Sequence record: NC_055708.1 | Source: Enterobacteria phage ATK47 | Length of the DNA: 64,000 nucleotides | Reading direction: 5' to 3' (one strand) | Shown: positions 4,865 to 51,322 of the stretch, one piece after another | Position numbering within the stretch: the first letter of the stretch is position 1 | How the letters are laid out: the number at the start of each line of letters is the position of its first letter | Translations under genes and position numbers: made by a program | Notes under the pieces: model-generated | Databases searched by the model: none | The model's input: only the letters and a program-made list of their open reading frames with translations | Told to the model about the DNA's origin: nothing

Positions 4865-6435
4865 TAAAAATCCTCTTGTTCTTGGTCGGGGTCTTGGAAA
4901 CGAGCCTCTTTCGACTCTTCTTCAATTTGCTTAGCCTCTTGTTCAATTTCCTCGTCAGACATCTGAAGAATATCTTTCATAGCTGTTCTGTGAGAAATAT
5001 ATTTACCAATAAATGGTTCGGCCATCTGAAGCATATTAATGCGACGCTCCAGAATCTCAGCATCCTTTAATTCCGAGAAATAACTATCCCGATGAAATTT
5101 TATCTTAATATTATTTATTTCATCATTCCACTCATCTTCTGTAATAATTCCTTTAAGAATTAAATTAGTTTTAAGCGGGTCTAGGAATATCTCTTCAAAT
5201 TTATGTTGCAGCTCACGAATAAATTTACCAAATGACAATTCATCTCGTGTAATAGAAGTACCAGCATCAAACTGTATACCACCTTGGTCACTTGGAATAC
5301 GGGTAATAGGAATACGTAAAGCCATATAAAGCGCATTACGGAACCAACGTACATCTTCCATATTTCCAGTATTATCTGCACCTGGTAATGTGTCAACTTC
5401 TGTTACTGCTTTACCATCACGTCGTTGTAACCAATAATCTTCGGTCATCGACATAATATGCTGCTGGTTTTTAATCTTGCCTGTAGTAGCATCATATGCA
5501 ATACGGTTTTTCATCGTATTCATAACATGCTGCATATGTTCTGCTGCTTTTCTTGAAGGCATATTACCTGTATCAACGTACCATACACGACGATCGGGAG
5601 CACGAGTAATACGATAAATTACGACGGCATCTTCAAGAAGTTTTAATTGGTTCGCCGGCTTAATAGCCCGATGCAAATAACCGATGATATTTTTACCACA
5701 ACAATCAACTAAACCAGAATGGGCATAAACAATCGCGGCTTTAGGGATTTTTATTTTTGTGCCAGCTTCATATATGCGGCCATCACAAGCATAAGATTCG
5801 TGTGATGTGTCATAAATGAAATATTCTTTATAACCCTTGACTATTTTAACACCGGCTTCAGTGGTTGTAATAACTTCACGGACATATTGAACTTGACGTG
5901 GGTCTAAACGACGAAGCTCTTTAATACCTTCTTTAGGGCGTTTAGGGTCAATAATTTTATGGAAGAAAATTCGAGAATCTACATACCAACGCCTAAAATG
6001 GTCTGAACCTTTACGTTGGAAAGATAAATGATTCAACACTTCGTTAAATTCATCCAACATCATTGATTTTATATTTGGACTAAATTTTGTGTTGTCTAAA
6101 TTTATAGAAACGACTTCTGTGTCATCTTCATATACGATAGCATCAGAAACTATTTCAGAGACTGCATTATCCACTTCATAGTTCGTCATCAAATTTCTAT
6201 ACGTATCGATTAATTCACGCGTTGATTTGAGCCCTGGTTCTTGGCTACCGAACATTCTCTGAAACATAGCATTATATGTTTGCTGTGCTTCATTTTCAGA
6301 TACTTCGTATTCTTTAGCACCGTCGTCTAATTTTGGTGAGGTGATCGATTCTAAATTTTCTTTTTCTTGGTCTTTGTAATCACGTTCGTCCATTTTTGCC
6401 CATGGAGCAAACAAACTTAAGATATTAAATTTCAT
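4864..6435 (-). CDS. 20: portal vertex protein gp20
   Basis: 523 aa; size and synteny as T4 gp20. Confidence 0.9.
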
Positions 6436-36335: not shown

Positions 36336-36800
36336 ATGAAATCATACGCTGAATTTTTGACTGAACAATCTAGTTCAGATGTAAAAGCCGCTGCGATTGC
36401 AGCAATTCAAGCAGGTAAATATTCTTACAAAGACGCCTCTGATGAAGAACGTTTCCGTTTTATTAGAGATTTTAAAGCCGAAGGTTTTACTAATGCTAAT
36501 ACTGTTAGCCGAGTTTTTAAAAGCCTAGCTGCATCAGGTGAATTGTTCCAGAAAGCTACAGGTAAAGCACCTGCGCCAAAAACAGACCCTAAAGCAGCTC
36601 AAGAAAAAAATATCGCCAAAGGAATTATTTCTAAGTATGAAGCAATTCTTAAAGAGCTTTTAGTAATCAAAACAGAAGGCCAGAAACTGGCACGAGCACA
36701 TAGCTTCAAAGATAATCCTCACGCTCATAGCCTTGAGTATGTTGAAGATATCCAAAAACTTATTAAAGACCGTATCTGGTCTGCTAAACAAATTAAATAA
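36336..36800 (+). CDS. internal protein-like (CTS leader)
   Basis: 154 aa; N-terminus MKSYAEFLTE matches CTS pattern. Confidence 0.7.
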   Translation: MKSYAEFLTEQSSSDVKAAAIAAIQAGKYSYKDASDEERFRFIRDFKAEGFTNANTVSRVFKSLAASGELFQKATGKAPAPKTDPKAAQEKNIAKGIISKYEAILKELLVIKTEGQKLARAHSFKDNPHAHSLEYVEDIQKLIKDRIWSAKQIK

Positions 36801-37713: not shown

Positions 37714-37742
37714 TTTACAAACTCTTGAGAGCAGAGTATAAT
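37713..37742 (+). promoter_or_regulatory. early promoter within palindrome
   Basis: ATTTAC, 18 nt, TATAAT; GAGAGC...GCTCTC inverted repeat flanks the -10. Confidence 0.55.
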
Positions 37743-37783: not shown

Positions 37784-38377
37784 ATGAACACACTGAAGAA
37801 ACTTGTTGAATTCATCCGCACTAAACTGGGTACTGCTATGGCTAAAAATCTGACTGTCGAAGAACAGTATAACGCAGCTGCAGATAAGTTGATTACCCAA
37901 ATCAAAGAACTAAAAACGGCTTCTGTTAAATCTATTAATGAAGAAAAACGTATTCGCGAACTTGTTAATGAAAAGAACAAGCAAGCCGCTTCTAAGGAAC
38001 GTGAAATTCGTAAGCTCCTGGCTGAAGGACAAGATGTTACCATGCATGCTAAGCTTGGTCTTCTGTATCGTCGAACTGCCGAACAACTTAATACAAAAGC
38101 TGACGGGTATGCCGCTATGCGAATTGAAATTGCTCGTAAGGTGGTTGAACTTGATGATGCTCGTCAGAACCTGGCAATCAAACTCGAATACATTCGTGAA
38201 ACTCGAGCAGCCAATGCCCTTGGTATCTCTACGGCTGATGATGTAATTGAAATCGCTGCACTGACTAAGGTTGATATCGAAGACACTCTGACTCGTGTTG
38301 AAACGTTCAATGGCACTCCAGCTGGTGTCGAAACCACTTCTGCTGATGTACAAGAATATATTAACTCTTTGAAATAA
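37784..38377 (+). CDS. coiled-coil protein (197 aa)
   Basis: ATG 37784 with SD; heptad-rich helical sequence. Confidence 0.6.
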
Positions 38378-38385
38378 AATAATAC

Positions 38386-38407
38386 GGAGGACTCCGGTCC
38401 TCCTTTT
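38386..38407 (+). terminator. rho-independent terminator
   Basis: GGAGGAC-TCCG-GTCCTCC followed by TTTT. Confidence 0.7.
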
Positions 38408-38426: not shown

Positions 38427-39029
38427 ATGCGAAACCAAAATAATGATATTGACTCAATGTTCGAAGAGTTCCGAGATAAGGTAAATCCACCTACGTCCTT
38501 AGTTGATTCATTACGATATGTTGCAACCGGACGTAAATGGTACTGGTCGTCTTCTTATGAGACCACCGAGAAAACGGCTAGCCATAGCAGAAAATCTTTA
38601 TTAGCCCCAGGTATTATGATTCATGATATCGGAGCTATTGCTAAACTAGTTGCAGACCATGATATTAGATTCACTGATTTCGTTGCTCCTACGTGGTCTG
38701 TTTGTTGTTTAAACACTGAATGGGAATATATCAGCGAACGCTCTGAAGATTATTATGGTTTTAGAGATAAGCTTCTGAGGTCTAATATGTTTTATATCGA
38801 TACAGAAGTTCTAGTCGATAATAAAAAATATTACTTTACGTTAATCATCGATTCTGAAACTATGTATGAAGGCAAGCCTTTGCTTAAAAGAGTTGATGCT
38901 TTAAGTGCTATTGATGCGCTTTATGAAACTATGGTTGTTAGTCCTAATTTCACTAACAATTTAATCCTTGAGCAATTTATTATGGAATGTAGAGAATATG
39001 TCAAAGCCAACCCTATACATGCCAAGTAA
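38427..39029 (+). CDS. hypothetical protein (200 aa) with C-terminal FIMECR motif
   Basis: ATG 38427 with SD AAGGAG; C-terminus LILEQFIMECREY. Confidence 0.6.
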   Translation: MRNQNNDIDSMFEEFRDKVNPPTSLVDSLRYVATGRKWYWSSSYETTEKTASHSRKSLLAPGIMIHDIGAIAKLVADHDIRFTDFVAPTWSVCCLNTEWEYISERSEDYYGFRDKLLRSNMFYIDTEVLVDNKKYYFTLIIDSETMYEGKPLLKRVDALSAIDALYETMVVSPNFTNNLILEQFIMECREYVKANPIHAK

Positions 39030-39393
39030 GCCCTGGGCGTATGAATACAAGCGTAAATTAATCCCAAATGAAGTACTATTTGGCCCTATTTTAGCTTTAG
39101 CATTTTTAATCTTTATGATTATAGGAGCTGTTTTAGATTCTAGTGAAGTTATATCGTCTGATGCAGCATTTTCATTAATGTTCGTCGCACCACTTATTGT
39201 ACCGTTTTTATTAATGCCTATTAATTGGGCGGGATATTGGCACCAAGGCCGTCATCACAGAGCCCGATTAAGAGAATGGAAAGTTCAGTGCGCAAAAGCC
39301 CAAGCTCAGTATGATGAAGCTGTTAAAAAGTATGAATATGAAGAAGCTATGGAATTCGTTAAGGAAATAAGATGCAAAAGCCTCAACTCTTAA
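38998..39393 (+). CDS. small membrane protein (131 aa), two TM helices
   Basis: Weak RBS, overlaps upstream gene by 32 nt; hydrophobic helices; C-terminus EFVKEIRCK. Confidence 0.5.
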   Translation: MSKPTLYMPSKPWAYEYKRKLIPNEVLFGPILALAFLIFMIIGAVLDSSEVISSDAAFSLMFVAPLIVPFLLMPINWAGYWHQGRHHRARLREWKVQCAKAQAQYDEAVKKYEYEEAMEFVKEIRCKSLNS

Positions 39394-39731
39394 CCGTATG
39401 GCCTTCTCTTGGTGAGAACATTCTAATTTTTATTATGAGTATTGGCATGGGATTTGCCTTTGGATTAGTTGGATTTCTTATTGACGGCGTTGTGTTAGGA
39501 TTTATAGGGAACACTGGTGGATTCACAGACCAATGGCAGGACTTACGGTATACCCAAGCCTTTGCATCCATCGCATCATTTTGTACTGTAGTCTATTTTT
39601 ACTACGATTTTATAAACCACAACAAGAAAAATAAAAAGGTTTACGCTTCTCAAATGATTAGTTATAATGAACTCCTAGCTAGACGTGAAAATGAAACAAT
39701 CGAAAACTTTATTAAGGAATGTAGAAAATGA
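39372..39731 (+). CDS. small membrane protein (119 aa) ending ENFIKECRK
   Basis: SD AAGGAA; two hydrophobic helices; conserved C-terminal tail. Confidence 0.6.
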   Translation: MQKPQLLTVWPSLGENILIFIMSIGMGFAFGLVGFLIDGVVLGFIGNTGGFTDQWQDLRYTQAFASIASFCTVVYFYYDFINHNKKNKKVYASQMISYNELLARRENETIENFIKECRK

Positions 39732-40033
39732 GTAAGATTATTGAAATTAAAGTACCAGAGTTTAATGATGCCAAATCCGCTTCAGATGCAATTTATAAAC
39801 TTCTGAATCAAGCTGAACGTATCGAAGAAGAAGCAACAAAGATCGCAGACCAATATGCCGTATCATTTTCTGTAGGTGATTATGGTAGTGGTCGTACTTA
39901 TTATCCTAAGGGTGAAATCGTATCCCAGTGGATGAAAGATGAAATTGAAAATAATGGCGGCGATGTTAAGCGTGAAGGTAATGGATACGTTATTACTGAA
40001 GGTGCTTGGGTTTCGTCTTCTGCGTTGTGCTAA
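39728..40033 (+). CDS. tandem paralogue A (101 aa), C-terminal GAWVSSSALC
   Basis: SD AAGGAA overlapping previous stop; shares YG-x-G-x-TY and GxWVxSSxxC with next two genes. Confidence 0.65.
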   Translation: MSKIIEIKVPEFNDAKSASDAIYKLLNQAERIEEEATKIADQYAVSFSVGDYGSGRTYYPKGEIVSQWMKDEIENNGGDVKREGNGYVITEGAWVSSSALC

Positions 40034-40042
40034 GGAATCATT

Positions 40043-40315
40043 ATGTCTAAAGAACAAACCGAACTGGCTGAAGCTGTAGCAAAAATCTATGCAGCTATTG
40101 AGGCTGCCAAAGAAATTGCTGATAAACAAAACACAACATTCGACTTGTATCCAGCTTATGGTATGGGTGGAACCTATCATTCACCAGGACATCTTAAAGC
40201 CGATCTTGAACGTTGTACAAAAAACGGTTATGCCGAATGGGCTGACGTTTACCAATACGACTACAACCTGAGCCTCGAAACTGGTGGTTGGGTCGCATCT
40301 TCTCACACTTGCTAA
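40043..40315 (+). CDS. tandem paralogue B (90 aa), C-terminal GGWVASSHTC
   Basis: Junction TGCTAAGGAA-N5-ATG shared with paralogue A. Confidence 0.65.
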   Translation: MSKEQTELAEAVAKIYAAIEAAKEIADKQNTTFDLYPAYGMGGTYHSPGHLKADLERCTKNGYAEWADVYQYDYNLSLETGGWVASSHTC

Positions 40316-40324
40316 GGAAACAAT

Positions 40325-40522
40325 ATGTCTCGTGAATTAGATTGTGCTGTACGTACGGCAGTAGCTGCTCTGGAAAACCTGTTCCAAATTGCAACAGAAG
40401 AACGCGAAGAAGTTACATTATGGATTGAAGATAACGCAGGTCTGAATCTCCAGGACGCGATCTCATTATCCCACAATAGTATCACTGTTCAAGGCTGGGT
40501 ATCATCTAGTTATTCTTGCTAA
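40325..40522 (+). CDS. tandem paralogue C (65 aa), C-terminal QGWVSSSYSC
   Basis: Same junction sequence and C-terminal motif as A and B. Confidence 0.6.
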   Translation: MSRELDCAVRTAVAALENLFQIATEEREEVTLWIEDNAGLNLQDAISLSHNSITVQGWVSSSYSC

Positions 40523-40526
40523 AACA

Positions 40527-40556
40527 GTTTACAACAAGATAGGGCTATGTTATAGT
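40527..40556 (+). promoter_or_regulatory. T4-type early promoter within palindrome
   Basis: GTTTAC, 18 nt, TG-t-TATAGT; ATAGGGCTA...TAGTCCTAT inverted repeat. Confidence 0.6.
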
Positions 40557-40584
40557 AGTCCTATCAAAACAAATGGAGTCCACA

Positions 40585-40824
40585 ATGATTTATTACGAAA
40601 GTATCGGAACCAAAGTGGTTGGTAAAACCATTACTCGTGAAAAGTTTGCAAAGATATTCGATATGCGTTATAAAAAATCTGAACACAAAGGCATCCGATT
40701 CGAAGATGCGCACTGTACAATTTGCCCTTATAATGAAGACATAAACGGTACAATCGTTCCATTGGTAGAGGCTTCACATGATGACCTCTGGGATGAATAT
40801 AATATCGCATGTCGTGAAATTTAA
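40585..40824 (+). CDS. hypothetical protein (79 aa)
   Basis: ATG 40585 preceded by GGAG; His and Cys residues near the C-terminus (possible metal site). Confidence 0.5.
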   Translation: MIYYESIGTKVVGKTITREKFAKIFDMRYKKSEHKGIRFEDAHCTICPYNEDINGTIVPLVEASHDDLWDEYNIACREI

Positions 40825-40852
40825 GTTAATGAATTAATCCGAGGAAAATATT

Positions 40853-41809
40853 ATGATGTTAGTTATTGGTTCTCGTGCACTTCACTATCACGGTCTTATT
40901 GATTCTAGCGCTATTAAAAATAGTGATTGGGACTTTATTGCGGACCAAGGTTCTTGGAATGTATTCAAAAATCAAATGATGGGTGTATATGTTCACCAAG
41001 ATAACCCTGATGTCCAAGTTTTCAAATGCTTCCATAACGGACGCGAAACTCATTTTGAAGCATACATCGTTCCGGCTATCACTAACGTTCGCGAACTAGT
41101 CGGTGAACTCACTCCTGAAGATTTCACGTCTTCTTATGACCTTTTAAAATACGCCAAGAAAAATTTGACTAAAGACCGTTTGAACGGGTTTTACTGGGCA
41201 ACTCCTGAGATATGTCTTGCAATTAAGATGTCTCATCGTTTCAAGAAAAATAATCCATTCTTTTTAAAGACTATGAACCATATTCAGTATCTTCGTGGTA
41301 AAGGTGTTACACTGAACGATGAACTTACTGAAATTATGCTGAAACGCCAGAAAGAAACCTTGAATTATGCTCACCCAGTTCTTGACACTTCTAAAAGTGC
41401 GTTCTTTAAAGATGACATCTATACATATGACCATGATACTATTCATGAAGCCATTGCACTAACAGACCGTCCAGCGTATACATTTTATATGAAAGATGGT
41501 TCTGAAGTCATGACCTCACGCGAGAAGTTCGAATCATTACCAGAAATGGTCAAATTGGCCGGCGTATACGAAGAATCATGTGTACTAGCGTTAGAACGTT
41601 CTCAGATTCCTAATAACTTTGAAATCCATCCACGTGATAGTTTTATGATGGCCCTTGAAAAGGTCTGCACATCAATCACATCAGGATGGTTCCGTGAGTT
41701 CGCTTGGGAAAATTATAGCAAAGTAGTAAGTATGTACCAAAGCTTAGGACACGACGATTACGTCAAGCGTTTCAAACAAAACTTTCATATGGTAAAACCT
41801 TTCAAATAA
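40853..41809 (+). CDS. Pol-beta-fold nucleotidyltransferase-like protein (318 aa)
   Basis: N-terminal VIGSRALHYHG...NSDWDFIAD fits the hG[GS]-x(9-13)-D-x-[DE] NTase signature; rest uncharacterised. Confidence 0.45.
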   Translation: MMLVIGSRALHYHGLIDSSAIKNSDWDFIADQGSWNVFKNQMMGVYVHQDNPDVQVFKCFHNGRETHFEAYIVPAITNVRELVGELTPEDFTSSYDLLKYAKKNLTKDRLNGFYWATPEICLAIKMSHRFKKNNPFFLKTMNHIQYLRGKGVTLNDELTEIMLKRQKETLNYAHPVLDTSKSAFFKDDIYTYDHDTIHEAIALTDRPAYTFYMKDGSEVMTSREKFESLPEMVKLAGVYEESCVLALERSQIPNNFEIHPRDSFMMALEKVCTSITSGWFREFAWENYSKVVSMYQSLGHDDYVKRFKQNFHMVKPFK

Positions 41810-41822
41810 TTTCACAAAACAG

Positions 41823-41851
41823 TTTACAAGGTCTGTAGTTGTTGATACTAT
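41823..41851 (+). promoter_or_regulatory. T4-type early promoter within palindrome
   Basis: GTTTAC, 17 nt, TG-a-TACTAT; GGTCT...AGACC inverted repeat. Confidence 0.6.
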
Positions 41852-41889
41852 AGACCTATCAAAACAAATGAGTGAATGGAGATATAAAA

Positions 41890-42090
41890 ATGACTACTTT
41901 GAATAAACGTTTCGGTAAAGCTAAACCTGGTTGTGCAGCAGAACGTCGTTATGTTTTCGCTCAGTTAGAAGATGTAGAGTATCAGATTAATCAAGTTCAC
42001 ATTACTGGTATCGAGCCTATGTGTGGCCTTGAAGCTCTTCGTGAAGTTCGTGATGGGTATCGTCGTGACATCGAAGAAATGTCAAAATAA
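41890..42090 (+). CDS. hypothetical protein (66 aa)
   Basis: ATG 41890 preceded by GGAGA. Confidence 0.5.
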   Translation: MTTLNKRFGKAKPGCAAERRYVFAQLEDVEYQINQVHITGIEPMCGLEALREVRDGYRRDIEEMSK

Positions 42091-42120
42091 GTGTACAAAC
42101 TGATAGGACTATGTTATAGT
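42091..42120 (+). promoter_or_regulatory. T4-type early promoter within palindrome (variant -35 GTGTAC)
   Basis: GTGTAC, 18 nt, TG-t-TATAGT; ATAGGACTA...TAGTCCTAT inverted repeat. Confidence 0.6.
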
Positions 42121-42148
42121 AGTCCTATTAAAACATGAGGAGAATATT

Positions 42149-42454
42149 ATGAAATTAGGCGAAACCAACCGAATTGGTCTTTTAACAATATTTGTATCAC
42201 TTTTTTACGCAGCTCTTTCTGTTGCAGTATTACAAAAGGCTTACAGTATGGATGGTGTTCCTGGTTTTGTATTCTTATCGCCGTTTTTGCTATTCGTTGG
42301 AGCATTGTTATTATATGCCACGACTAGTTTCGACCATAACGTCTGGGTCAATTATAAATGTAAATTGTCTGAAGAAGAACACGCAGAAGCTCGTAAAAAA
42401 GCTATTGAATCTACCAATCTAGAAAATTTCATTAAAGAATGTCGAGGAAAATAA
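42149..42454 (+). CDS. small membrane protein (101 aa) ending NFIKECRGK
   Basis: SD GAGGAGA; two hydrophobic helices; conserved C-terminal tail. Confidence 0.6.
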   Translation: MKLGETNRIGLLTIFVSLFYAALSVAVLQKAYSMDGVPGFVFLSPFLLFVGALLLYATTSFDHNVWVNYKCKLSEEEHAEARKKAIESTNLENFIKECRGK

Positions 42455-42455
42455 T

Positions 42456-43142
42456 ATGAATAGTTCTAAAGTGTTTAATAGTCAAGCTCGTGCAGTAGGT
42501 GGTTTTGCTCATGCGATTAAAAATGACCAGATTAAAAACGAGCCTATGTTCTTTAATTGCGATTTGAATTTTGCTTTTGATAACGGCGGTCCAATTACTC
42601 GTAGCTTTATCCAAAATCTCCCTGACGATTGGAAAGACTCGGATGTAGTATTTGATTCACGAGTCCATATGCTGATGCCTGGTTGGTATCCTGCTATTCC
42701 TGGTTATCACCATGATGACGTACCACGCCCGGATATTCCGGTTGGTCAACATTTTATTACTGCAGGACAACCTGACTATGACAATCCTCGCTATTTGTCT
42801 GAACATATTCTTGGTCTTGTTAACGCTGATGTGTGTCCTACTCATTTTGCAACAGGAACTGCAGAGTTCAGTCAGATTCCTGATGGCGAACTTATCTATC
42901 GCCAGTGTCACAAAGAAGTCCTCGAAAAAATTGAAAAAGGTGAACTAGAGAAATGGGAAGCTCCAGATCGTACTCTTCTTCAGTTTGATTGGCAAACATG
43001 GCACACTGGTTCTCGTGCAATTAGTAATGGATGGCGTTGGTTCGGACGTGTATCTCGTAATACAGACCGAGTTAAAAAGATTACCAATGAAATTCGTGTC
43101 AATGCTCAAGTTTATCTGGAATTCCCTATGGAAGGCTGGTAA
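42456..43142 (+). CDS. putative 2OG-Fe(II) oxygenase-like protein (228 aa)
   Basis: H85-x-D87 ... H183 ... R198-x-S200 spacing fits the 2OG oxygenase facial triad plus RxS 2OG-binding motif; not verified. Confidence 0.35.
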   Translation: MNSSKVFNSQARAVGGFAHAIKNDQIKNEPMFFNCDLNFAFDNGGPITRSFIQNLPDDWKDSDVVFDSRVHMLMPGWYPAIPGYHHDDVPRPDIPVGQHFITAGQPDYDNPRYLSEHILGLVNADVCPTHFATGTAEFSQIPDGELIYRQCHKEVLEKIEKGELEKWEAPDRTLLQFDWQTWHTGSRAISNGWRWFGRVSRNTDRVKKITNEIRVNAQVYLEFPMEGW

Positions 43143-43633
43143 TGATTAACAAAACATATTGGTCTAATATAGACGATGGCAACGAAGGTATTTCGTACTA
43201 TTCAGTGGATTGGACAGGATGTCCATCCTACTTAGTGAAACGTATTTGCCAAGAATTTAAAATCGACCAGCCAGCAGGTATTATCGTGAACAGATACATT
43301 AATGGATATCAACCTATCGATGAAGTAATACGAACAACTCAAGCTGAGCTTGAAAAGTTTTTCAATAAGTGCCAATGGATAACAGGATGGATTATATTTG
43401 TACCGTCGGTATGGTTTTTCAGTACTAAGGTGAGTTCTTTCGGATTTGTTGATATTATTGCTATCTTATTAGCATCTAGTATCGTAAGTGTTGTTGGTGG
43501 CATCATTGGCGGCGGTACCGCCGCCATCATTATTAATCTTATTAAAAGTAGTTTACAAGAACATAAAGACAAGATAAAAGCCAAGAATAATGAAGTTGAA
43601 CGTTTTATTACCGAATGCAGGAATTTGAGATGA
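43142..43633 (+). CDS. membrane protein (163 aa) ending ERFITECRNLR
   Basis: C-terminal hydrophobic helices and conserved tail; ATGA overlap with neighbours. Confidence 0.6.
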   Translation: MINKTYWSNIDDGNEGISYYSVDWTGCPSYLVKRICQEFKIDQPAGIIVNRYINGYQPIDEVIRTTQAELEKFFNKCQWITGWIIFVPSVWFFSTKVSSFGFVDIIAILLASSIVSVVGGIIGGGTAAIIINLIKSSLQEHKDKIKAKNNEVERFITECRNLR

Positions 43634-44348: not shown

Positions 44349-44837
44349 ATGAATATATTTGAAATGCTTCGTAATGACGAAGGTCTTAGACTGACTTTAT
44401 ACAAAGACACTGAAGGCTTTTGGACGATTGGCATAGGCCATTTAGTAACAAAGAACCCGTCTTTAGCCGTAGCTAAAGCTGAACTTGACAGAATGATCGG
44501 CCGTAAATGCAACGGTACAATTACCCTTGATGAGGCTGAAAAGCTATTTAATGAAGACGTTGATAAAGCTGTCCGCGGAATCTTGGGTAATGCTAAACTT
44601 AAACCGGTATATGATTCTTTAGATGCAGTTCGTCGGTGTGCATTGGTCAATATGGTCTTCCAAATGGGTGTAGCAGGAGTCGCCGGTTTTACTAATTCTC
44701 TTCGTATGCTTAAACAGAAACGTTGGGATGAAGCGGCAGTAAATCTAGCTCAATCTAAATGGTATCGTCAGACACCTAATCGCGCGAAACGCGTAATCTC
44801 AACATTTAAAACAGGAACTTGGAAAGCGTATATATGA
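44349..44837 (+). CDS. e: lysozyme (endolysin)
   Basis: [31 protein letters not shown]; about 85 percent identical to T4 lysozyme as recalled. Confidence 0.97.
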
Positions 44838-45115
44838 AAACATATAGTGAATTTTTATCAGAATCTATTCTTAACGAAGCTACTGACACATTTGCAACTA
44901 AGCTAGGTGCAGCTTTGGTTGAAGCTGAAAGTCTATTAGCACGTATTTCTGAACTTGCTAGTAAGATAGATACTCGCAAATTTGAACGTACCAGCGATAT
45001 CGCTAAGCTTGAAGCCTTGTTGCGTATGTGCGATAAACCAGAAGAAATCGCTAAGAACGGCTCGCTGATGAAACAACGTCTTGAAAAATATATTTCAGGC
45101 GCTTCAGAAAAATAG
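44834..45115 (+). CDS. internal protein-like (CTS leader)
   Basis: 93 aa from ATG 44834; N-terminus [15 protein letters not shown]. Confidence 0.7.
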
Positions 45116-50740: not shown

Positions 50741-51322
50741 ATGGCTAGTTTAATTTTTACATATGCCGCTATGAACGCTGGTAAGTCTGCTTCATTACTT
50801 ACTGCTGCACATAACTATAAAGAACGTGGCATGGGTGTATTAGTTCTTAAACCGGCTATTGATACTCGTGATTCAAAAGGTGAAATAGTCTCTCGTATTG
50901 GTATTCGTCAGGATGCCAATATAATTACAAAAGACATGGATATCTTTGAATTCTATAAATGGGCTGCAGCACAAAAGGATATTCACTGTGTATTTGTTGA
51001 CGAAGCTCAGTTCTTAACTACTGAAAAGGTGTATCAACTTAGTCGTATTGTTGACGTATACAATGTGCCGGTAATGGCATATGGACTACGAACAGATTTT
51101 AAAGGTAATCTATTTGAAGGTTCTCAAGCATTAATGGCTATTGCCGATAAGCTTGTTGAACTTAAAGGTGTCTGTCATTGCGGTAAAAAGGCCACAATGG
51201 TAGCTAGAGTCACGGAAGACGGACTTCCAATTACAGATGGCAGTCAAATTGAAATTGGTGATACCGATAGATACGTGTCATTATGCCGGAAGCATTGGAA
51301 TGATTTGACAGGGTTGTTATAA
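50741..51322 (+). CDS. tk: thymidine kinase
   Basis: MASLIFTYAAMNAGKSASLL...; near-identical to recalled T4 Tk. Confidence 0.95.
   Translation: MASLIFTYAAMNAGKSASLLTAAHNYKERGMGVLVLKPAIDTRDSKGEIVSRIGIRQDANIITKDMDIFEFYKWAAAQKDIHCVFVDEAQFLTTEKVYQLSRIVDVYNVPVMAYGLRTDFKGNLFEGSQALMAIADKLVELKGVCHCGKKATMVARVTEDGLPITDGSQIEIGDTDRYVSLCRKHWNDLTGLL

Follow-up and report, generated by a model that had tools for sequence, protein, structure and literature searches.

A shared C-terminal FIxxCR tail on otherwise unalignable early proteins of T4-like phages, encoded beside a putative PspA-like gene

Introduction

Small inner-membrane proteins encoded beside a gene of the PspA/IM30 type are known from several bacteria, as with PspA and PspB/PspC in E. 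coli and Yersinia, or LiaH and LiaI in Bacillus subtilis. In cells, the partners of PspA homologues are typically small membrane proteins specific to a lineage (PspB/C, LiaI, PspM), and the cytoplasmic parts of the PspB/C- and LiaI-type proteins are thought to recruit or regulate the PspA-type protein (PMC11237479). Here we describe a short C-terminal tail, with the core F-[I/V]-x-x-C-R, that is carried by early proteins encoded next to e.6, a gene whose product is predicted to be PspA-like, in a 64,000-nucleotide stretch of Enterobacteria phage ATK47 (NC_055708.1; this whole stretch is called the window) and in other T4-like phages.

An initial annotation, made from the letters of the window, had pointed to the tail on five open reading frames (ORFs) and offered two readings of it, a docking peptide or the footprint of repeated recombination at a conserved gene junction. 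It also hinted at superinfection exclusion. The genes e.2 to e.6 and the similarity of e.6 to PspA are already known: a genome announcement reports an HHpred match of 99.9% between the e.6 homologue of phage Metamorpho and PspA (4WHE; PMC7862958), and this note was all that we found on e.2–e.6 in the literature. In the literature searched, we found neither the shared tail nor its dual coding or its link with e.6 described.

Results

The six-frame translation of the window (127,996 residues) contains four matches to the pattern F[IV].EC[RK], and every one lies in a tail ORF, 1–11 residues from the stop codon. Residue frequencies predict 0.10 matches and 60 first-order Markov resamples 0.15 (maximum 2), and the last 17 residues of long open stretches make up only 1.5% of six-frame positions. 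All five proposed ORFs are present with the expected C-termini (Table 1). The fifth, of 131 amino acids, had been credited with the related ending EFVKEIRCK. Its tail is indeed related, but it has Ile at the Cys position of the motif; the later Cys is encoded in the codon pair AGA-TGC, which contains the ATG of e.3. Two look-alikes were set aside. The ORF at 40573-40824 ends in ...YNIACREI, and its orthologues do not keep the motif, so it is not a sixth member. The 193-residue ORF at 50741-51322 (...YVSLCRKH) is unrelated; from its size, its position and a similar T4 ORF we take it to be thymidine kinase.

The 5.6 kb around the tail cluster are 100% identical to Enterobacteria phage ATK48 and 97–99% identical to many RB69-like Mosigvirus genomes, and by sequence the window is assigned to this group. 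The cluster lies among early genes on the + strand, between the tRNA/rnaC block and nudE-e-denV. Four of the five tail genes are, by similarity and gene order, orthologues of e.2, e.3, e.4 and e.5 of T4. GenBank notes to ATK48 name e.5, e.4 and e.3, the e.2 of RB69 is 87% identical, and tblastn against T4 gave 37% for e.3 (full length) and 44% for e.2 (N-terminus). T4 has the identical order of e.2–e.5 between e.6 and nudE-e, and the e.4 start used here is backed by the N-terminus of its T4 orthologue, MSKPSLYLPSKP. The e.2 homologue is unannotated in the ATK48 record, which leaves a gap there, and is annotated in other Mosigvirus records. Database labels for all five proteins are "hypothetical" or "predicted membrane protein", and their PHROGs families are of unknown function. 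None of the five had a significant match in Pfam (E ≤ 0.1), NCBIfam or PADLOC. Some GenBank records call e.3 or e.4 a "putative sulfurtransferase" without a stated basis.

A search of other phage genomes, as the initial annotation had proposed, found the motif in orthologues from T4, Gaprivervirus, Kanagawavirus, Jiaodavirus, Dhakavirus, Karamvirus, Tegunavirus, Pseudotevenvirus, two Aeromonas phage genera and Muldoonvirus. A pattern fixing F/W, I/V and R/K gathered the core hydrophobic-x-x-F-[IV]-x-x-C-R from 108 distinct ORFs at about 50 loci in at least 12 phage genera. The T4 tails read ...KFVKECREYVKA (e.5), ...KFVKESRCKSQS (e.4), ...EFVIDCRKIK (e.3) and ...NFITECRKLK (e.2); in the 149 of 169 kb of T4 that were covered, the strict motif is found only in e.2, e.3 and e.5, every time at the C-terminus. 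The consensus of 38 members from 11 genera is L(-3)-E-x-F-I-K-E-C-R-K/G, with F in 36, I/V in 37, C in 32 and R in 34 of them. Orthologues of e.3, only about 37% identical overall, still keep F, I/V, C and R. Members scored 12–29 bits with a 10-column position-specific scoring matrix (PSSM) and the rest of 935 other ORFs scored below 10 bits; the exceptions at or above 10 bits outside the member set were three further e.4-type or cluster ORFs. In the e.4 lineage (e.g. T4, VR20, Mineola and IME523) the Cys position is taken by I, V, S or M. The tail-bearing phages have a wide host range, all within Gammaproteobacteria.

The codons of the tail are mixed. Among the 38 members, F is encoded by TTT (23) or TTC (13), C by TGT (13) or TGC (19), and R by AGA (13), AGG (5), CGA (5), CGT (8) or CGC (3). 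The eight residues ENFIKECR are identical in e.3 and the 101-amino-acid protein of the window, with four synonymous differences in 24 nt. These mixed codons, together with the persistence of the motif away from start codons (see below), indicate conservation at the amino-acid and not the nucleotide level. A preset comparison of DNA and protein, meant to decide between peptide and junction, thus came out in favour of the peptide: amino acids are kept while synonymous sites are scrambled. We regard selection at the protein level as almost certain.

Two records bear on how tail genes are annotated. In T4 strain 'wild' (KJ477684), e.2 is split into two overlapping ORFs (stretch L003, 5001-5309 and 5297-5488), an annotated 102-residue part without the tail and an unannotated 63-residue ORF with the second transmembrane (TM) segment and NFITECRKLK; the e.2 of Tequatrovirus JLBYU24 is a single ORF of 162 amino acids. 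Either T4 has a frameshift here or the split stems from sequencing or annotation. Serratia phage Muldoon (stretch L058, 5626-6283) has two adjacent two-TM ORFs labelled 'putative holin or antiholin', the first (5626-6003) without a tail and the second (5987-6283) ending in ...EFIKYCKDKY. This label rests only on nearness to the endolysin gene. The counterparts of these ORFs in T4-like phages are early genes, and holin t is at another locus.

Database searches with single proteins recovered few relatives. Word-indexed protein searches with e.2 and e.5 returned only relatives at least 80% identical, and a full HMMER scan with e.5 returned 3 proteins in 1.8 billion; the families are too divergent for deep alignments. 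A tblastn search with the 39-residue C-terminal part of the 101-amino-acid protein found Mosigvirus copies only. The tail is too short to seed searches.

The initial annotation had also placed the motif at gene junctions, and this holds: 26 of the 38 members have the next ATG no more than 12 nt from the end of the motif. The reason is that, where genes are tightly packed, the ribosome-binding site of the gene that follows overlaps the motif. When distinct tail ORFs from the set of 108 were binned by the distance from the motif end to the next ATG, 22 of the 29 with the ATG at -2 to +6 nt had a 4-mer resembling a Shine-Dalgarno (SD) sequence in codons 3–4, and 18 had K-E encoded by AAG GAA. Such 4-mers and K-E were absent at 7–30 nt (n = 50) and at more than 30 nt (n = 13), that is, from all 63 ORFs with the next ATG beyond +6 nt, and residues 3–4 were diverse in both classes. 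F, I/V, C and R were kept in all three. K-E in FIKECR thus mostly represents AAGGAA, the Shine-Dalgarno sequence of the gene that follows, and the remainder of the motif is a protein signal. The 3' coding sequence of e.3 also holds an early-promoter-like site shortly before its tail codons (Table 1), which may be a third overlapping signal.

The closeness to start codons and the SD-like K-E would suit a nucleic-acid junction feature (an initiation or coupling cassette, or a recombination footprint) of which the peptide is a mere by-product, and the UUUAUU upstream of the SD would suit an AU-rich initiation region. The invariant F, I/V, C and R, however, lie outside the SD part and are kept in every distance class, including where the next start is 30–149 nt away, so a pure junction or recombination element is rejected. 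Nucleotides were not conserved above amino acids, even the Arg codons switching freely between AGR and CGN; only positions 3–4 are SD-like. Spacing is not fixed either: the distance to the next ATG spans -38 to +149 nt, whereas the frame is tied to the upstream ORF. DNA flanking the tails is not conserved between paralogues. In phage phiC120 (stretch L004, 5001-5090), e.3 is reduced to its last 30 codons including the tail, with e.4 and the genes downstream of e.3 intact; its body has been deleted, not swapped at the junction. The recombination footprint suggested at the outset is contradicted by the retention of the motif in homologues elsewhere with freely varying codons, and we give very little credence to any explanation at the nucleic-acid level.

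What do the proteins share apart from the tail? In blastp, 22 proteins, both membrane and soluble, join into one cluster, whereas without their last ~12 residues the same 22 split into orthologue groups. Similarly, 141 tail-truncated proteins from about 50 loci fell into about 30 BLAST groups. Comparison of tail-less profiles by hhalign gave remote homology only among e.5-like soluble families of different genera (93%, 85%), and at most 14% between membrane families (e.2, e.3, e.4 and others). Apart from the e.5-like soluble set, no two groups of tail proteins appear clearly related in sequence once the tail is removed. The carriers comprise several types of two-TM hairpin, the e.5-type soluble domain and small soluble proteins, all of one early cluster. 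The tail thus has the marks of a linear motif, being the same peptide on unrelated proteins and conserved at the amino-acid level.

Alternatively, the proteins could be paralogues of great age that retain the tail as the slowest-evolving remnant of their common ancestor, with no special docking role. A tandem gene cluster is typical of duplication, and the membrane members have a common architecture: two TM segments are followed by a charged helix and then by the tail. But the e.5-type and small soluble proteins have the tail on another architecture, and profile comparison between classes shows nothing beyond it. Selective retention would, moreover, still imply that the tail is the functional core. 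We attach little weight to this explanation.

Two TM segments are predicted in four of the five proteins, and only the 200-amino-acid e.5 is soluble; the membrane hairpins noted at the outset are borne out, but their number is four and not three. The second TM segment of the 119-amino-acid e.3 falls below the hydropathy threshold here and above it in the T4 orthologue. In the membrane members, a charged linker of 30–50 residues separates TM2 from the tail, and the first 15 residues after TM2 contain 4–5 K/R in e.4, e.3 and e.2, with acidic or neutral loops. The positive-inside rule and the lack of a signal peptide in the soluble members suggest that the tail lies in the cytoplasm. Its conserved positions (the hydrophobic residue at -3, F, I and C) fall at i, i+3, i+4 and i+7 with the Arg adjoining, so that the tail would form an amphipathic α-helix with these positions on one face.

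A position 29–50 residues after TM2, in most members beside the next start codon, is a geometry that force-sensitive arrest peptides use after a TM segment. The tail could on this account be an arrest or termination-modulating peptide of the nascent chain, in the manner of SecM or MifM, that couples insertion of the hairpin to translation of the next gene. Soluble members have the same motif, however, and the distance to the stop (0–25 residues), like that to the next ATG, varies widely. Known arrest peptides have a Pro- or Trp-rich signature, which the tail lacks, and the genes that follow the tails show no relation to one another. This is the least probable of the explanations weighed here, with hardly anything to recommend it.

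The tails might instead bind each other, giving a hetero-oligomeric membrane complex of e.2–e.5 through a C-terminal helix bundle, possibly with a metal ion shared by Cys residues. The genes adjoin one another, and the overlap of stop with start codons implies co-expression; there are 3–7 tails per genome, and one rare Cys is kept per tail. Against this, distant phages (Aeromonas 65, AS-gz and GAP161) have one or two tail proteins, all soluble, the e.4 lineage has no Cys, and tails in the cytoplasm would make disulfide bonds unlikely. We consider such a complex unlikely. Chemistry at the Cys in general (metal, disulfide or sulfur transfer) was rejected as an explanation, given the e.4 lineage.

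The gene before e.5 is e.6, which is far better kept than the tail proteins (31–88% identity across genera). Its AlphaFold2 (AF2) model, built from 30 sequences with a predicted local distance difference test (pLDDT) score of 76, has an N-terminal helix, a long helical hairpin (helices 25-80 and 86-145; pLDDT >85 over the hairpin) and two short C-terminal helices. In the PDB, Foldseek matched this model best to Vipp1 (7o3w_A, E = 2.4e-4, then the further Vipp1 entries 7o3x, 8qbw, 9eom and 6zvr), to PspA (7abk) and to archaeal CdvB2. The predicted structure thus shows a PspA-like fold. There was no match to Pfam PspA_IM30 at E ≤ 0.1; the relation to PspA is visible only by profile-profile or fold comparison. 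The gene is conserved across Straboviridae, with a homologue in Kuttervirus (Ackermannviridae), and in some GenBank records it goes by the label 'host specificity protein', for which no basis is given.

In GenBank, 11 genera were examined, and in every one of them the first ORF downstream of e.6 carries a tail. The same is true of 35 of the 39 metagenomic loci from IMG/VR that were anchored on e.6; of the other four, two have FINYCI and two look truncated. No ORF with a tail was found in the 5 kb upstream of e.6 in the e.6-anchored loci. The pairing extends to Muldoonvirus (YIDQCR) and PEi26, and in the distant Aeromonas 65, AS-gz and GAP161 just e.6 and the e.5-like tail protein are kept. The C-terminus of e.6 was considered as a further copy of the tail; its spacing is alike, but its PSSM score of 3.3–3.9 bits places it at about rank 60 of 935 ORFs, a weak lead at most. 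In Salmonella phage pertopsoe (Ackermannviridae; stretch L057, 4632-5225), an e.6-like gene is followed by one for a membrane protein that has ...VESIVDRARTR... close to its C-terminal end. This has the spacing of the tail, with I for F and A for C, and may, on weak grounds, be a distant or degenerate tail.

The tail could also dock onto a host protein, such as host PspA/PspF or another cytoplasmic hub, and so aim several phage effectors at one target. Host hubs are targets of many early phage proteins. The tail is a short C-terminal module, and its phages, for all their wide host range, infect Gammaproteobacteria only. No host look-alike or target was identified, however, and the tight linkage to e.6 is more simply explained by a partner from the phage. 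A host target is in our judgement improbable.

The superinfection-exclusion hint of the initial annotation found no support. There is no motif-bearing ORF at the T4 imm and sp loci, the family and defence-system searches above gave no match, and the neighbour is instead predicted to be PspA-like.

Table 1. Positions in the window of the tail genes, e.6 and neighbouring features.
Feature	Position	Strand	Remarks
Promoter-like site TTTACA-17-TATAAT before e.6	37714-37742	+	Consensus match only
e.6 homologue, predicted PspA/Vipp1/ESCRT-III-like coiled coil	37784..38377	+	AF2, Foldseek and synteny; gene before e.5
Terminator-like hairpin between e.6 and e.5	38386-38403	+	Consensus match only
e.5 homologue, soluble, 200 aa	38427..39029	+	C-terminus ...LILEQFIMECREYVKANPIHAK; phrog_2607; first ORF after e.6
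e.5 tail FIMECR	38976-38993	+	Followed by EYVKANPIHAK, overlapping the start of e.4
e.4 homologue, two-TM inner-membrane protein (predicted), 131 aa	38998..39393	+	C-terminus ...AMEFVKEIRCKSLNS
e.4 variant tail FVKEIR	39355-39372	+	Ile at the Cys position
e.3 homologue, two-TM membrane protein (predicted), 119 aa	39372..39731	+	C-terminus ...ETIENFIKECRK; phrog_2330
Early-promoter-like site TTTACG-17-TATAAT	39640-39668		3' part of e.3, ~40 nt before the tail codons
e.3 tail FIKECR	39708-39725	+	One residue before the stop; AAGGAA (K-E) is the SD of the gene starting at 39728
Small soluble protein, second tail family	39728-40033		Ends in GAWVSSSALC
Small soluble protein, second tail family	40043-40315		Ends in GGWVASSHTC
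Small soluble protein, second tail family	40325-40522		Ends in QGWVSSSYSC
318-aa protein	40853-41809		DUF7277 and DUF7275; within the cluster
Mosigvirus-only two-TM protein (predicted), RB69ORF133c-like, 101 aa	42149..42454	+	C-terminus ...NLENFIKECRGK; phrog_9798
Tail FIKECR of the 101-aa protein	42428-42445	+	
228-aa protein	42456-43142		2OG-Fe(II) oxygenase in one GenBank record
e.2 homologue of T4/RB69, 163 aa	43142..43633	+	C-terminus ...EVERFITECRNLR; phrog_2203; ~80-aa soluble N-terminal domain, then TM hairpin
e.2 tail FITECR	43604-43621	+	
ORF with N-terminus of putative capsid-targeting type (MKSYAEFLTEQ...)	36336-36800		
ORF with N-terminus of putative capsid-targeting type	44834-45115		

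At positions equivalent to the two sites flanking e.6 (Table 1), the annotation of ATK48 has a putative promoter of host type and a terminator. Among the neighbouring genes, three tandem small soluble proteins share a second tail family, W-V-S/A-S-S-x-x-C, at the very C-terminus. Copies of the WVSS type occur in VR20, IME523 and the Dhakavirus examined (5) and in fHe-Yen9-01 (4), with none in T4, Mineola and Aeromonas phage 65, and no family match was found for these proteins. The genes for the 318- and 228-amino-acid proteins are present in most genera examined. Two further ORFs have N-termini that we take to resemble the capsid-targeting sequence of T4 internal proteins.

Discussion

The data point to a short peptide that is selected as protein, is placed at or near the C-terminus of proteins with little else in common, and follows e.6 wherever the two were found together. 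It is probably an interaction peptide. Somewhat less firmly, we favour on balance a more specific form of this idea, in which the tail consensus hydrophobic-E-x-F-[I/V]-x-x-C-R-(K/G/basic) would form a cytoplasmic C-terminal docking helix that ties otherwise unrelated modules to one common partner. The membrane members would then be anchors or adaptors and the soluble e.5-type protein a regulator, with cellular parallels in PspB/PspC with PspA and in LiaI with LiaH. The candidate partner is the predicted PspA/ESCRT-III-like e.6 at the head of the cluster, a tentative choice made from synteny and analogy. Going further, and as a speculation that we think rather doubtful as a whole, these phages may have their own Psp/ESCRT-III-like membrane system, in which e.6 is recruited and regulated by fast-diversifying two-TM adaptors (e.2–e.4 and lineage-specific extras) and by a soluble e.5-type protein, all through the shared FIxxCR helix, and protects or remodels the host inner membrane during infection.

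Several points weigh against the docking-helix proposal or its choice of partner. The conservation of F/W, I/V and R/K in the set of 108 ORFs is partly by construction; the exclusive location of the motif, the diversity of the families and the PSSM gap are support independent of the collecting pattern. The AF2 model of e.2, the only membrane member folded, came from a shallow alignment and is unusable (pLDDT 36, with a weak hint of helix at residues 126-161), so the case for a helical tail comes from residue spacing. Replacement of Cys in the e.4 lineage argues against chemistry at this residue, yet is compatible with packing. Searches with the PspB, PspC and LiaI-LiaF-TM profiles matched none of the five proteins (Pfam E ≤ 0.1; NCBIfam). 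Finally, the genes may lie beside e.6 because the block was inherited as a whole and not because the products interact, and a host protein, or the tails among themselves, would serve equally well as partner.

One conserved tail nevertheless unites at least ten early-protein families that cannot otherwise be aligned. T4 is the reference virulent phage, and the shared tail and the putative PspA-like gene turn its hypothetical e.2–e.6 block into one testable system, with named residues to mutate (F, I/V, C and R) and a partner to probe (e.6). If the link to e.6 is true, the block would be a phage-encoded membrane-maintenance module with a new adaptor logic. The tail is also a clean example of dual coding, in which the K-E of a protein motif in fact constitutes the following gene's ribosome-binding site, and calls for caution in hunting motifs in compact genomes.

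How does this locus compare with described systems? Promoter-early stem-loop cassettes are short, non-coding repeats at gene boundaries in hyperplastic regions of T4-like genomes. They are conserved as nucleotides, whereas the tail is coding and conserved as amino acids while its nucleotides drift. Like T4 Imm and Sp, the tail proteins are small early T-even proteins that would act at the cell envelope, but they are encoded at other loci, and imm and sp are unlinked to e.6. Closer in form are ESCRT-III MIM1/MIT, the FtsZ C-terminal peptide and the SSB tip, where a terminal peptide of ~10 residues is likewise carried by otherwise unrelated proteins. The MIM1 pattern is L-x-x-R-L-x-x-L-(K/R), and the amphipathic spacing of the tail, hydrophobic-x-x-aromatic/hydrophobic-hydrophobic-x-x-small hydrophobic-basic, resembles it; the tail differs in its residues, F-I...C-R, and no MIT-like receptor was identified. 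Mimicry of the FtsZ tail was rejected, since the FtsZ peptide needs a Pro, which the tail lacks, and the conserved positions differ.

The closest likeness is to the Psp and Lia systems, where small inner-membrane proteins with a cytoplasmic helical part adjoin a PspA homologue. Here, too, a putative PspA-like gene is followed by genes for small two-TM proteins with basic, charged C-termini whose helices would lie in the cytoplasm. In the phage system proposed above, the shared tail would in addition resemble the short terminal helices that dock ESCRT-III proteins. There are also differences: the phage genes are early-expressed and the interaction is putative, and several interchangeable partners, soluble ones among them, share one short tail, an arrangement not described for cellular Psp.

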